Origin: an uncultured cyanobacterium
GTDB lineage: Bacteria > Cyanobacteriota > Cyanobacteriia > Cyanobacteriales > Cyanobacteriaceae
Reading direction: 5' to 3'
Assembly: GCA_963710605.1 (NCBI GenBank)
Contig: CAVQBA010000002.1
Span: 96,001 to 160,000 of the forward strand
Length of the DNA: 64,000 nucleotides
The position numbers and the translations under genes were made by a program. Positions within the stretch are counted from its first letter, which is position 1. Every line of letters begins with the position of its first letter. The notes below the pieces were generated by a model. That model worked only from the letters and a program-made list of their open reading frames with translations, ran no database searches and was not told where the DNA came from. Shown here piece by piece: positions 38,554 to 42,340 of this stretch.

Positions 38554-39739
38554 ATGGTTAAAGTTGTTGTTACAGGTATTTCTCTTCAGATCGTGTCTAG
38601 GAGATGCACAAGCTACTTTCTCAGCTATTAGTCAAAAAAAAACAGGTTTAAAAATAGTTCAGCCTTTTGATTTTTTAGCTCCATTACCTTTAGGTTTAAT
38701 TGATGGTTAACCAACACAATCAGCACATTTAACTCTCAAGTTGATACAAGCTTTATCCTTAGATAGTAAAATCAATTTTCCTAACTCGAAGATAGGAGTT
38801 GTGATTGGTTCGAGTCGTGGTTGTCAAAGTCAGTGGGAACAGTTTTTACAAACACCTAGCTTAAATAGTAATCAGCAGTCTGTTTTAAATTCGTTTTCTT
38901 CACCACAAAATCAAACGTATTCGTGGCTAGAAACATTACCTTATCAACCTGCGACTATTTGTGCTAATTTTTTGGGTGCATTAGGAATAGTTTCTTCTCC
39001 TGCTAATGCTTGTGCTACTGGTTTAGTGGCGATCGCTCAAGGTTATGAATTGATTCAACAACAAAGATGTAGCCAAGTGGTTGTGGGAGCAGTTGAAACA
39101 CCTGTTACTCCTTTAACAATTGCTGGGTTTACAAAGATGAAAGCATTAGCTAAACAAAAATGTGATCCTTTTGGGAAACTAAGAGATGGTTTTGTTTTAG
39201 CAGAAGGAGGTGCAATGTTACTGCTAGAAAGTGAGGATTCGGCAATTGCTCGTCAAGCCAAAATTTATGGTGAAATATTAGGTTGGGGTATGACTTGCGA
39301 TGCACAGGCAATGACAGCCCCATCAAATCAAATCAATTCTGCGGTTAAAGCGATTGAACAATGTTTAAAAGTTGCACATCTTCAGCCTAATCAAATTGAT
39401 TATATTCATGCTCATGGTACAGGTACAATCCTTAACGATCAACAAGAAGCGAAAATTATTAGTCATTTATTTAGTCATTCTCCTTATATCAGCTCGAGTA
39501 AAAGTAATACAGGTCATACTTTAGGTGCTTCAGGAGCGATCGCTTCGGCATTAAGTTTACTTTCTCTTCAACAACAAATTGTACTCCCACATCTTAATTA
39601 CTCCCCTACTAATTTTAATTTGAATCTTGCTTCACAAGCTTCTTGTGTTGATTCAATTGAAAATCTTCTTTGTTTTAGTTTTGGCTTTGGCGGACAAAAT
39701 GTCATTATTGCGATCACGCAGTGGCAGGCGCGCGCCTGA
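38554..39739 (+). pseudogene. Beta-ketoacyl-ACP synthase (FabF-like paralogue), 5' part disrupted
   Basis: ATG at 38554 (MVKVVVTGI), frameshift near 38587, in-frame TAA at 38708; ACATG, HAHGTGT, GHTLGASG and SFGFGG downstream. Confidence 0.8.
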
Positions 39740-40121
39740 TCGGAAAATACAATAACCGTAGTTAAAAATTGTTAATTACGATTAAAAGCAATAAGGGAAA
39801 GCTAATTAAGACAGGGAATTTTCTACTCATATACAAGAATCTATCCCACTATTATCAAAAAATAGATTGAAATAGAAAACGATCGACTCGCCATTATCTA
39901 TTACTATTTGTGAAAAGTAACCATTGCCAAAATCCCAATCGTTACGCTAGCTTCATTGGAAAGATTACCATCTTTATCTTCGCTATGTGTAGGTAAATCG
40001 ATCGATTCCCACAAATTCGCTGTTAGGTTGATAGTCAACTATGCCTTGTGAATTAACTGTGATAACGCCGTTATTTGGTTGGCTAGTTATTTGTCAGCTA
40101 TTAGGTATTAATGTACCATCA

Positions 40122-40226
40122 CGATCGGCTGAAGCCGGCGCTGCTCGCGATCGCTATCGTTAGCTAAGACATCGATGGCGATATTTTCTCCTTGCTCGAT
40201 CGGCTGAAGCCGGCACTGCGCGATCG
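40122..40226. repeat. Two tiny HIP1-associated inserts (26 and 24 bp)
   Basis: CGATCGGCTGAAGCCGGC at 40122 and 40197, each followed by a second CGATCG (40148, 40221). Confidence 0.7.
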
Positions 40227-40375
40227 AGATTAAATCATTAAGGGCTAATGGAGCGGTAACGGACTGATTGTCAATTTTGACGTAATCGAGGTTGGTGTTG
40301 TTACTAATGGCAAAGTCACCGTTAAGAATTTCTGCCATTAATCCACTAGAGGTTAGAGAGGCAGTGAGGGAGATT

Positions 40376-40474
40376 CCCCCCTCTCCTTCGGAAGGAGAGG
40401 GGCTGGGGGTGAGGTTGAAAGCGTTGGGTTCAACCCCTCTGCCTATTATCGGCATCTCCCCTTCTAAGGGGAGA
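40376..40474. repeat. Two GC-rich palindromic REP-like repeats
   Basis: CCCCTCTCCTTC-G-GAAGGAGAGGGGctgggggtgagg and TCTCCCCTT-ct-AAGGGGAGA. Confidence 0.7.
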
Positions 40475-40876
40475 ACAGTAGAGCTATTATAAGGAATTAA
40501 GGTGTGGTAAGTATCTGTTTTTGTATTTTGAATAGCATTAAGTATTAATACGTTGATATCGGAAGGAAGTTTACGGATACCAGGGGCTATATGGTTCTTT
40601 AGTAAGTCGTGGGGATGAGCTTGTTTGTCTAATTTTTTGTTGGCAAAGGGAGTTTCATCGATAAACCAACCTAAACCGTTGGCGTTATGATCGATTTTAA
40701 TAATACCTGCGTTAGGTTTACCCTCGGAGTCAGAAACTTGTAATGGTGGCTTCTGCTAGTTGTCCTGTGGGTAAGTCTTTTATTTCATAAGTGATATCGA
40801 TATCTGTTTGAGGTAAGAGAGTTGACCAGATGTGGTTTACGCTGTTATTTAGTTGATGAATCGTTTGGAGATTAGA

Positions 40877-41656
40877 ATGATGGACAGAGAAGAATTTTTT
40901 AGAAGGTATGATGCTGGGGAAAGGAATTTTATGGGTTACAGTGGAAGTATTGGCTCGTGCCTCGGAAATCTGAATGGTATCAATCTCCAAAATGCCATTT
41001 TGTTGAATAATTCCTTGGACCAATCTTTTTTGATTAATGCCAACTTGAGTCATGTTAATTTTGAAGGCTCCGACTTGGTTGGATGTTTCTTCAACAATTC
41101 TAATTTCAGGAATGCTAATTTGAGGAATTGTGACTTGACTGGTGCTGACTTGACTGGTGCTGACTTGACTGGTGCTGACTTGACTGGTGCTGACTTGACT
41201 GGTGCCTTCTTGCTCGATACCAATCTTACAGGAGCTAACATTACCAATGTTAAGACAAGTGGAACTATCTTTCACGAAACTATCATGCCTGATGGAAGAA
41301 TCAGTCATAAGAGTTCTCATGTTTTGGACGGAAAGGAATTGCTTAAACGTTGTCGGAAAGGTGAAACCTATTTTTCTTCCTTTATTTTGTACAAAGCCAA
41401 TTTGAATCAGACTAGTTTGAGTTCTATTACTCTCCCTTGGAGATGTATTAGAGTCAATTTTAGAAGAGTGAGCTTTGTTAATATTGACATCATTGCTAAT
41501 AATTTTGTTTTGTGTGATTTCAGGAAAGCTAATTTTAGTAGAGCGAATCTTTGGAATGGTAATTTCGCTTGTTGTGATTTCAGAGAAATTATTGGAAGTG
41601 AACAAATCAGAGGGAGTGACAGCGATGCCTTTATTTTCATTGATTGTACTAAGTAA
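40877..41656 (+). CDS. Pentapeptide repeat protein with two EELL.RY..GER.F-type modules
   Basis: GGAG at 40867 before ATG 40877; MDREEFFRRYDAGERNF, (A)DLTG x5, TIMPDG and second module LDGKELLKRCRKGETYF. Confidence 0.85.
   Translation: MMDREEFFRRYDAGERNFMGYSGSIGSCLGNLNGINLQNAILLNNSLDQSFLINANLSHVNFEGSDLVGCFFNNSNFRNANLRNCDLTGADLTGADLTGADLTGADLTGAFLLDTNLTGANITNVKTSGTIFHETIMPDGRISHKSSHVLDGKELLKRCRKGETYFSSFILYKANLNQTSLSSITLPWRCIRVNFRRVSFVNIDIIANNFVLCDFRKANFSRANLWNGNFACCDFREIIGSEQIRGSDSDAFIFIDCTK
41131..41205 (+). repeat. Perfect 15-bp tandem repeat x5 (TGACTTGACTGGTGC)
   Basis: Direct reading; encodes DLTGA on + and QVSTS on -. Confidence 0.95.
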
Positions 41657-41715
41657 GCGTGCTGAGGGGTCATTAAATCTTGAAGGGTTACTATTTTTGA
41701 GTGCGATCGTATCTC

Positions 41716-41780
41716 TTGTAGGGTGCGTTCTATTAAACCGTTACATATTTAAGACCATCCCATATAACAGAGAACGCACC
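41716..41780 (+). repeat. GTAG-type REP element
   Basis: GTAG foot, then GGTGCGTTCT ... AGAACGCACC inverted repeat. Confidence 0.75.
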
Positions 41781-41788
41781 ACCGTTGT

Positions 41789-42340
41789 TTATTCATTAAC
41801 GATTTCTTGAGGTATTTGTGGTATGTTATCTACTCCCCAATTAGACGGATAAATTCCTTGAGCAATAAAGCGATGAATGGTTGAAAACTGCCAATCTTTC
41901 TTGTGCCGATCGACATAATTGATGACGAACCGAATTATAATGTATCTAATCACAATGTCGAGCAAAATCTTTTTCATCTCTAATCAAATGCTCTCAAAAT
42001 CTTCTTGCCAAAGATTACTTTCTTTTCGTTTTTGTCTTGAAGCAGAAATATTTCTCTTGATGCCTAATTGTTGAGCGTAATGTTTGCTGACAAATGTTTT
42101 GATTAAACGAATACGAGTAGATAAATCCCCATCCCCTTGTGGAAGAGTCCATACACAATGAAAATGCTCTGGTAACAAAACAAAAGCATCAATGGAAAAA
42201 GGATATTTTTGACGTACTTTATCGATCGCCTCTCTCAGAGCCTTCCGTGCAATTTTACCATACACGTTGTCTTTGGTAAGTTACTTGGGTAATAAAATAA
42301 GTACCACCACGAAGAATTGATACGTCAATATTTAGGCTGA
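41789..42340 (-). mobile_element. REP-associated tyrosine transposase (RAYT) pseudogene
   Basis: GGTYFITQVTYQR, AFVLLPEHFH (HUH), LWQ, YIHYN and WQFSTIHR in shifted frames; flanked by REP copies. Confidence 0.85.

Follow-up and report, generated by a model that had tools for sequence, protein, structure and literature searches.

A pentapeptide-repeat gene nested codon for codon in antisense within a large cyanobacterial gene: a recurrent arrangement and a candidate nuclease inhibitor

Pentapeptide-repeat proteins (PRPs) of the DNA-mimic type are known to target gyrase and topoisomerase, and we know of none whose gene is nested in another gene. A nuclease target is not mentioned in the DNA-mimic PRP literature that we found, and nothing in a literature search (supplementary files excluded) connected pentapeptide repeats with antisense nesting or with inhibition of nucleases. 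Long overlaps of bacterial protein genes on opposite strands are themselves disputed. Reported examples include pop, antisense to ompA in E. coli O157:H7, and two long pairs in Pseudomonas aeruginosa; in the portions of these reports available to us, the embedded genes are young, taxonomically narrow, and located inside old genes (PMC7103648, PMC8850804). Long antiparallel open reading frames (ORFs) are mostly not under negative selection, i.e., are by-products, according to the accessible part of a preprint in which a word search finds neither pentapeptide repeats nor cyanobacteria (bioRxiv 10.1101/724807). Here, we describe a PRP gene from an uncultured cyanobacterium (contig CAVQBA010000002.1, positions 96,001 to 160,000; this whole stretch of 64,000 nucleotides is referred to as the window) that lies complete, in antisense and codon for codon, within the frame of a large gene, hereafter called the host, and compare this locus with related loci in the same genome and in other cyanobacteria.

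The nested gene has its own ATG and a GGAG sequence ahead of it, and its placement inside an open minus-strand frame, as given in an initial annotation of the window made without database searches, was reproduced exactly (coordinates of all features are collected in Table 1). The protein, which is already called in NCBI/ENA, consists of tandem A(D/N)LXX-type five-residue repeats; it matches pentapeptide families only, and its match to the Pfam Pentapeptide model (PF00805) has an E value of 2e-29 and a score of 101 bits, the cut-off being 20.2. AlphaFold2 modeled it with high confidence (predicted local distance difference test score, pLDDT, 88.9; predicted template modeling score, pTM, 0.86) as two beta-helix domains, in which a strand recurs every 5 residues and residues 4-12 and 152-160 form cap helices. 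The protein is thus predicted to be a right-handed quadrilateral beta-helix with a capping helix. Nested-type PRPs of this genome have in common an N-terminal cap (..EELLRRYAAGERDF..) and a C-terminal ..TIMPDGS.. motif, and the N-cap motif of nested PRPs aligns to solved and designed PRPs. Nested PRPs of the two-domain type, with two cap-to-cap units per ORF and ca. 300-345 codons, all wholly nested, were also seen at the loci that we label L099, L101, L104, L108, L114, and L115. Relative to these relatives, the window protein is without approximately the last 40 residues, including the final cap. A promoter and terminator scan of positions 40500-42000 returned 3 promoter-like sites against 4.5 expected from shuffled sequences and was uninformative. 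A search of sequencing runs for this sequence listed a single DNA metagenome run (0.07 share of words) and no RNA run.

For the opposite strand to remain open when two genes are aligned codon for codon, the nested gene must avoid TTA, CTA, and TCA. Codon usage was evaluated against 2,419 ORFs of at least 150 codons from the same genome, whose G+C content is 33%. Genome-wide, TTA and CTA account for 57.8% and 9.1% of leucine codons and TCA for 18.3% of serine codons. In the nested gene, as the initial annotation had noticed for leucine, TTA and CTA are absent from all 27 leucine codons (19 are TTG), and TCA is absent from the 22 serine codons; the chance of such absence under genome usage is 1.3e-15. 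When the gene was resampled synonymously 20,000 times, the longest antisense-open run had a median of 37 codons and reached at most 109 of the 259. The actual antisense-open run, at 266 codons, is the longest among the 2,419 ORFs (median 42, 99th percentile 140), and the next 25 ORFs ranked by this measure are mostly relatives of the nested PRP or the frames opposite them. The codon avoidance is therefore far beyond chance. A general bias of the kind caused by G+C content or horizontal transfer was ruled out as its source: G+C content at third codon positions is 36%, and the avoidance is frame-specific, since TAA and CTA are common out of frame.

The same distinction divides the PRP genes of this genome. 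Forty-eight ORFs match the Pfam Pentapeptide model, and with two further copies 50 could be classified. In the 16 that have an intact or remnant copy of the minus-strand gene directly antisense-upstream, 3 of 486 leucine and serine codons are TTA, CTA, or TCA, while in 26 ordinary PRP ORFs these codons make up 860 of 1,680 (51%). The remaining 8 ORFs are without a detectable remnant and have low counts (1-8 each; 22 of 221 codons). Unrelated PRP genes of the genome hence do not share the avoidance, as the nesting proposed in the initial annotation would demand. A founder effect, i.e., avoidance inherited from a recent duplication, was also considered and ruled out, because the PRP bodies of the paralogues, with the exception of two recent pairs, have diverged beyond blastn-level similarity, and only the block upstream of them is alike.

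The host frame was followed through its copies in the genome. The conserved end of the minus frame (..NSVNHIWSTLLPQTDIDITYEIKDLPTGQLAEATIT, followed by GKPNAG..GWFID.TP) occurs approximately 20 times. The longest copies, with 817 and 503 open codons, reach into ..KYDLLTTILHE..HLYGF.., which contains an HExxH motif, and into immunoglobulin (Ig)/cadherin-like domains. The 817-codon paralogue has 45 TTA/CTA/TCA positions, none of which falls within codons 79-256, the extent of its antisense PRP-like ORF; the 503-codon copy has the same gap, over an intact PRP of 168 residues. Outside the overlap, the three longest host paralogues differ from one another by 23/16/66, 26/17/54, and 27/11/64 substitutions at host codon positions 1/2/3, and, because the differences are mostly at position 3, they have diverged under selection.

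Codon-aligned antisense nesting is a trait of the family and recurs across genera. A search of cyanobacterial proteins with the host returned 181 family members (E up to 0.001), many of which have an Endonuclease_NS domain before the overlap region and Ig, PKD, or cadherin domains after it; host-family sequences hold mirror images of both PRP caps. In a sample of the phylum, the metzincin block (the conserved block, which forms the start of the metzincin-like domain described below) was found in 10 of 400 other genomes. Thirteen loci from this sample were examined: an intact antisense PRP of 145-345 codons was present in 8 of 8 that have the linker region, and the other five are three weaker-matching giant proteins without the linker, where open runs are 7-71 codons, and two cut fragments. 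Within one cyanobacterial family, the block occurs in 45 of 301 genomes, often within open frames of 10,000-11,600 codons, and 26 of 28 block-bearing loci have an intact antisense PRP (121-303 codons). Among named genome records, 80 loci were returned by the block and 79 could be analyzed; they come from Xenococcus, Waterburya, Nostoc, Calothrix and Tolypothrix plasmids, Rivularia, Chamaesiphon, Desertifilum, Leptolyngbya, Acaryochloris, and others. At 75 of these 79 loci, the antisense frame stays open for 100 codons or more, and 74 of the 75 nested translations pass the Pfam Pentapeptide cut-off, the exception being a 32-residue piece at a locus edge. Strains carrying the block include Xenococcus sp. 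PCC 7305 and Tolypothrix tenuis PCC 7101, both with nested ORFs among those checked; Anabaena cylindrica PCC 7122 and Stanieria cyanosphaera PCC 7437 are also listed as carriers. Of 71 non-redundant nested genes, 64 have an ATG no more than 14 codons from the cap motif, and a Shine-Dalgarno-like motif precedes it in 51 of these 64. In an alignment of 51 host-frame sequences, a single invariant histidine stands in an otherwise variable stretch, facing the nested ATG. The expectation of the initial annotation that intact homologues carry the antisense gene was thus borne out in these surveys and in the two long copies of this genome: across related genomes, the two ORFs recurrently remain unbroken throughout the overlap.

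The pattern of substitutions was used to determine which strand is constrained. In one close pair of paralogues from this genome, differences at the three positions of the PRP frame were 14/14/36; since the hosts of this pair are decayed, the test was repeated on orthologues with intact hosts, in 13 pairs that are 66-97% identical at the DNA level and come from partly related lineages. The 2,503 codons of overlap had 428/313/743 differences at positions 1/2/3 of the PRP frame. The flanks, which code for the host only, had 558/418/956 downstream (2,510 codons) and 194/126/357 upstream (1,175 codons) when counted by host codon position. Coding periodicity therefore switches strand at the overlap, following the PRP inside and the host outside. 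The ratio of position 3 to position 1 differences is 1.74 in the overlap, which matches the 1.71 and 1.84 of the flanks; the host thus adds little constraint beyond forbidding stops. Purifying selection at the amino acid level was seen in the overlap for the PRP frame and not for the host frame, where only stop avoidance and continuity of the frame were evident. The initial annotation had held that both strands were under coding selection; this is true of the PRP at the amino acid level, but the host frame is merely kept open through the overlap.

Structure prediction led to the same division. The host reading of the overlap was modeled by AlphaFold2 with a pLDDT of ~30 and is predicted to be disordered, while the next domain, which contains the HExxH motif, had a pLDDT of 82-96 in a paralogue model. 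In a Foldseek search, this domain matched leishmanolysin (1lml, E 5e-4, probability 1.00) and then catalytic domains of matrix metalloproteinases (E 0.02-1), and so, on the evidence of the model, it is predicted to have a metzincin-like catalytic fold. The first histidine and the glutamate of HExxH are invariant among the 51 host-frame sequences, and the second histidine is nearly so; the window copy is without the motif. Searched by sequence against solved structures, the host protein matched nothing better than an Ig-like phage protein, and that weakly. The overlap frame of the window is, by homology, a remnant of the linker and of the start of the metzincin-like domain. The initial annotation had taken the host for a large secreted surface protein; a large protein it is, but in full-length relatives the overlap would be a linker following a nuclease domain and not a surface domain.

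In the window itself, the host gene is a pseudogene and a relic copy of the module. The minus frame continues past the start of the PRP into IWSTLLPQTDIDITYEIKDLPTGQLAEATIT; after a frameshift near 40731, the minus strand reads GKPNAGIIKIDHNANGLGWFIDETP and then enters Ig/cadherin-like remnants, as initially annotated. Mapping to the 817-codon paralogue revealed a deletion of 73 residues that hold HExxH (paralogue residues 339-411), a loss of a further 156 residues from the tail (residues 529-684), a second frameshift, and in-frame stops. The host is regarded as dead because of the frameshifts, the loss of HExxH, and the absence of a nuclease domain. The initial view that the host has decayed and the nested gene is intact is accurate as regards the host and as regards a PRP ORF that is unbroken and folds confidently in the model; the missing C-terminal residues are what it overlooked.

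Table 1. Features of the nested gene and of the decayed host gene in the window.
Feature	Position	Strand	Basis
Nested PRP gene, two-domain type, 259 amino acids plus stop	40877..41656	+	Pfam PF00805, codon counts, AlphaFold2
Shine-Dalgarno-like GGAG, 6 nt ahead of the nested ATG	40867..40870	+	Read from sequence
Host-gene frame, open and codon-for-codon aligned through the nested gene; 336 codons plus stop	40730..41740	-	Stop-to-stop reading; homologous to residues 182-305 of the intact 817-codon paralogue
Conserved block, predicted to form the start (first helix and strands) of the metzincin-like domain (..NSVNHIWSTLLPQTDIDITYEIKDLPTGQLAEATIT); serves as 5' leader of the nested gene on the + strand	40733..40876	-	~20 genome copies; within the confidently folded domain of the paralogue model
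Host fragment after the frameshift (DSEGKPNAGIIKIDHNANGLGWFIDETPFANKK), paralogue residues 306-338	40633..40731	-	tblastn map
Host fragment, paralogue residues 412-528	40282..40632	-	tblastn map
Ig/cadherin-like tail of the host pseudogene, with deletion, frameshift, and in-frame stops	39937..40290	-	tblastn map; weak Cadherin_4 match
Inverted-repeat element, 10-nt arms GGTGCGTTCT / AGAACGCACC, 39-nt loop, conserved flanks	41722..41780		5' boundary of the host frame

The inverted-repeat element bounds four copies of the host gene, i.e., the one in the window, one on contig C6 near 184144, and two on contig C7 near 499336 and 500298. It may mark the point of host truncation, beyond which the nuclease domain would continue in full-length relatives. 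A 93-residue ORF on the same strand just upstream of the host remnant (41984-42265) has a weak match to IS200-like Y1 transposases (E 2e-4, under the Pfam cut-off) and is probably a fragment. Inside the host pseudogene, a perfect 12-nt palindrome at 40378-40402 (CCCCTCTCCTTC / GAAGGAGAGGGG) encodes PSPSEGEG on both strands; it belongs to the gene family and is not a private insertion, because paralogues have the same peptide stretch. The tail of the pseudogene adjoins a beta-ketoacyl synthase ORF on the + strand (38741-39739), whose match begins at position 112 of the N-terminal domain model, and which may therefore be truncated at its 5' end.

The explanation that we favor, with moderate confidence, is that the window carries a decayed copy of a conserved module in which a constrained PRP gene lies antisense in the linker of the host and codes for a nuclease inhibitor. 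The full module would be a large secreted protein composed of an Endonuclease_NS (NucA-type) domain, a linker of ~150-300 residues, the metzincin-like HExxH domain, and Ig/PKD/Calx-beta repeats; one giant ORF has the order Endonuclease_NS, overlap, metzincin-like domain, Big_9/cadherin, six PKD, and eight Calx-beta domains. A complete PRP gene with its own ATG and Shine-Dalgarno site would lie opposite the linker, the PRP being the partner constrained in sequence and the host requiring only an open frame. The frame must stay open through the overlap because coding domains flank it in the same frame, and the PRP may therefore not use TTA, CTA, and TCA. The host would in turn gain a disordered Ser/Thr/Gln/Ile-rich linker set by PRP codons. 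Such an arrangement could have arisen from a convergent pair of genes for a nuclease and its inhibitor, as in nucA/nuiA, if the frame of the nuclease later extended across the antisense of the inhibitor gene and joined the gene beyond it. The window PRP has outlived its dead host, and it owes its codon avoidance to inheritance.

Several observations point to the nuclease domain as the partner of the PRP. The genome has a stand-alone, lipoprotein-type nucA (PF01223, 1.2e-58) followed by a convergent nuiA (PF07924, 4.6e-29) at C5:276075-277189, the 3' ends of the two overlapping by 4 nt. A nested PRP is placed relative to the nuclease domain as nuiA is to nucA, just after Endonuclease_NS and on the opposite strand. 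Among the 79 loci, the nuclease domain is directly upstream at 47, and a nested ORF of at least 132 codons has been kept in all 47. Where the nuclease-bearing host is intact the PRP is thus always retained, while PRPs outlive dead hosts, as in the window; this asymmetry is as expected of an enzyme and its protector. In the nuclease domains, GH and E are invariant and N is nearly invariant. The nested PRPs are acidic, with a median isoelectric point of 4.65 and 78 of 83 below 5.5. A complex model of a nuclease domain with its own nested PRP gave an interaction score (ipSAE) of 0.63 (runs 0.63, 0.76, and 0.59), the best of three controls being 0.00; of 80 solved complexes, 58 scored this high, as did 2 of 110 mismatched pairs, a calibration that holds only roughly for a model built with our own alignments. 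The runs agree in at least 62% of contacts, with a partner pLDDT of at least 88. The predicted interface involves one face of the beta-helix and the Asp of the DRGH motif with nearby residues. The model therefore supports binding of the PRP at the active-site face, without showing it. The acidic PRP may accordingly be thought of as occupying this face and protecting the producer.

Taken further, the PRP could be the cognate immunity protein of the NucA-type nuclease, a DNA-mimic inhibitor; antisense nesting would make enzyme and inhibitor inseparable and couple their expression by convergent transcription, and the ~20 nuclease-less copies of this genome would form a repertoire of orphan immunity genes directed at nucleases of neighbors. 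We put this forward tentatively, as a possibility that we stop short of favoring in full. If true, it would give PRPs a new function, and no earlier case of a whole bacterial gene lying antisense within another would be both phylum-wide and backed by selection. The initial annotation had offered an immunity gene or a variable cassette as the role of the embedded gene; the former has gained support from the complex model and the nucA/nuiA parallel, and nothing was found that supports the latter.

In addition to the rough calibration of the complex model and the partial relatedness of the lineages compared, several results weigh against the preferred explanation. None of the host copies of this genome has an attached nuclease domain, the sole PF01223 match being the stand-alone nucA, and an inhibitor role therefore cannot explain the present-day retention of the ~20 copies here. 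Elsewhere, 32 of 79 loci are without a nuclease domain. An antisense layout is not obviously suited to co-expressing an enzyme and its inhibitor. Within the overlap, codon changes read in the host frame are synonymous in 169 cases and non-synonymous in 851; because no amino acid-level constraint is seen there, we infer host translation of the overlap only from its unbroken in-frame continuity with the flanks. Finally, the Calx-beta repeats of one giant ORF in another genome (L167 16382-18844) have codon-aligned antisense-open runs of 111-276 codons with Cys-rich, junk-like translations, and composition alone can thus open long antisense runs. The case for nesting consequently rests on the combined tests and not on openness, and the Calx-beta runs were left out of the counts of nested genes.

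The leading alternative is that both frames are selected to stay open, but that the PRP does not act on the nuclease and instead regulates the host through convergent transcription, aids its secretion or folding, or was trapped by the fusion of two host genes across it. Cyanobacterial PRPs are known to have varied roles, and the nested PRP occurs without a nuclease domain in all copies of this genome as well as at the 32 loci above, with its leader and likely promoter inside the conserved start of the metzincin-like domain. Such a role would not, however, account for a complex model that passes its controls and places the interface at the active-site face, for a PRP position that mirrors nucA/nuiA, or for retention in every nuclease-bearing locus; moreover, at the three loci where a metzincin-like domain stands without nuclease and linker, there is no nested ORF (runs of 7-71 codons). 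We regard this view as unlikely, though it deserves to be taken seriously.

Much less probable, in our estimation, is that the PRP alone is a gene, the opposite frame being a relic or a by-product of composition, and the nuclease and metzincin flanks being separate genes. Public annotation would agree with this, since pipelines annotate the PRP and split the large frame. One Nostoc plasmid record lists the PRP but no further gene on the host strand until more than 1 kb beyond it; the record of a Nostoc flagelliforme plasmid lists the PRP alongside a "PKD domain-containing protein" that overlaps it by only 69 nt (the gene table behind this check omits pseudogenes and genes that cross the record start). 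The lack of amino acid constraint on the host frame and the open Calx-beta runs could be cited in its favor too. Yet there is no stop between the flanks, and a single frame runs through the nuclease, the overlap, and the metzincin part at 31 of 31 loci. By-product openness is also difficult to reconcile with a frame open at 75 of 79 loci, with non-nested PRPs of the same genome in which half of leucine and serine codons are the ones avoided here, and with resampled genes that never opened beyond 109 codons.

The converse would be that the host is the sole genuine gene, with the PRP reading as the shadow of a five-residue Q-[IV]-S repeat of the host protein; this is very improbable. A five-residue repeat does give another one when read in antisense, and gene callers do sometimes pick the host frame, as for a 788-residue protein in this genome. 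However, periodicity in the overlap follows the PRP frame, nearly all of the antisense ORFs (74 of 75) pass the Pfam cut-off, the nested ORFs have the N-terminal cap motif of solved and designed PRPs together with ATG and Shine-Dalgarno site, and the PRP reading is modeled far more confidently than the host reading. Hardly credible is an invertible segment readable in either orientation within the host gene, for although both orientations are open in frame, as an intragenic inversion would need, no flanking inverted repeats of at least 12 nt were found in the window or in one giant-gene copy, and the PRP has its own start, Shine-Dalgarno site, and stop.

Both frames are thus open recurrently across genera, with periodicity flipping strand at the overlap; translation of both strands, and binding and inhibition by the PRP, are what we infer. 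The case is built on comparative evidence, which is unusually clean: whole genes of 120-345 codons have been kept within another frame at approximately 100 loci from many genera. The arrangement suggests that an overlap can be cheap: the inner gene would give up three synonymous codons, TTG being one step from TTA, and the outer gene would spend a disordered linker. In the two annotated records that were examined, annotation of the PRP and splitting of the large frame hide the arrangement. The locus represents a new variant of antisense overlap, suggests, on the basis of the complex model, a candidate new role for PRPs as nuclease inhibitors, and offers a natural system in which to study how an enzyme and its candidate inhibitor are expressed when encoded on opposite strands of one DNA segment.

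Of the described systems, the Anabaena-type NucA/NuiA pair is similar in that a PF01223 nuclease has an inhibitor-candidate gene immediately 3' on the opposite strand, and in that the complex model puts the PRP on the active-site face of the nuclease. A PF01223 domain beside such a gene is present at 47 of 79 loci elsewhere and in the giant ORF, and is absent from the window and from the host copies of this genome. Unlike NuiA (PF07924), the candidate inhibitor is a PRP and could be an analogue at most, not a member of that family; unlike NucA, the nuclease lies internally in a very large protein, and its frame reads through the whole antisense gene. The likeness to DNA-mimic PRPs (MfpA, Qnr, and the McbG/AlbG type) lies in the repeat family, solved Qnr, MfpA, and McbG-like chains being matched at 1e-14 to 2e-6, in the acidity of the nested PRPs, and in the proposed mode of action, occupation of a DNA-binding site.

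Polymorphic toxins with Tox-NucA domains likewise carry a NucA-type nuclease, whose GH, N, and E residues are conserved, within a secreted repeat protein of very large size, according to the part of the survey available to us (PMC3482391), where other immunity families are listed and the word "pentapeptide" occurs 0 times. Inhibitor-like genes that persist without the enzyme, as orphan immunity genes do, are a further likeness. The module described here differs in that its nuclease is internal, followed by metzincin-like, Ig, PKD, and Calx-beta domains, and not C-terminal, and in that the candidate immunity gene is nested in antisense and not co-directional downstream, which sets it apart from that class.

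The shadow ORFs opposite dnaK, annotated as "glutamate dehydrogenase" (PF10712), resemble the host reading of the overlap in that stops are avoided opposite a conserved gene and, as far as the portion of the preprint available to us covers them (bioRxiv 10.1101/724807), the opposite reading is without negative selection. The unconstrained reading in our case, in contrast, sits within a much longer gene, and it must stay open because flanks under coding selection share its frame. What the locus shares with pop/ompA and similar pairs, as these are described in the accessible parts of PMC7103648 and PMC8850804, is that an entire ORF, hundreds of codons long, is embedded on the strand opposite a second coding frame. 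In those pairs the embedded genes are the young ones. In the module described here, by contrast, it is the inner gene that comes from an old family of known structure and is under constraint, the host contributing a free linker, and the arrangement is found at ~100 loci in many genera.

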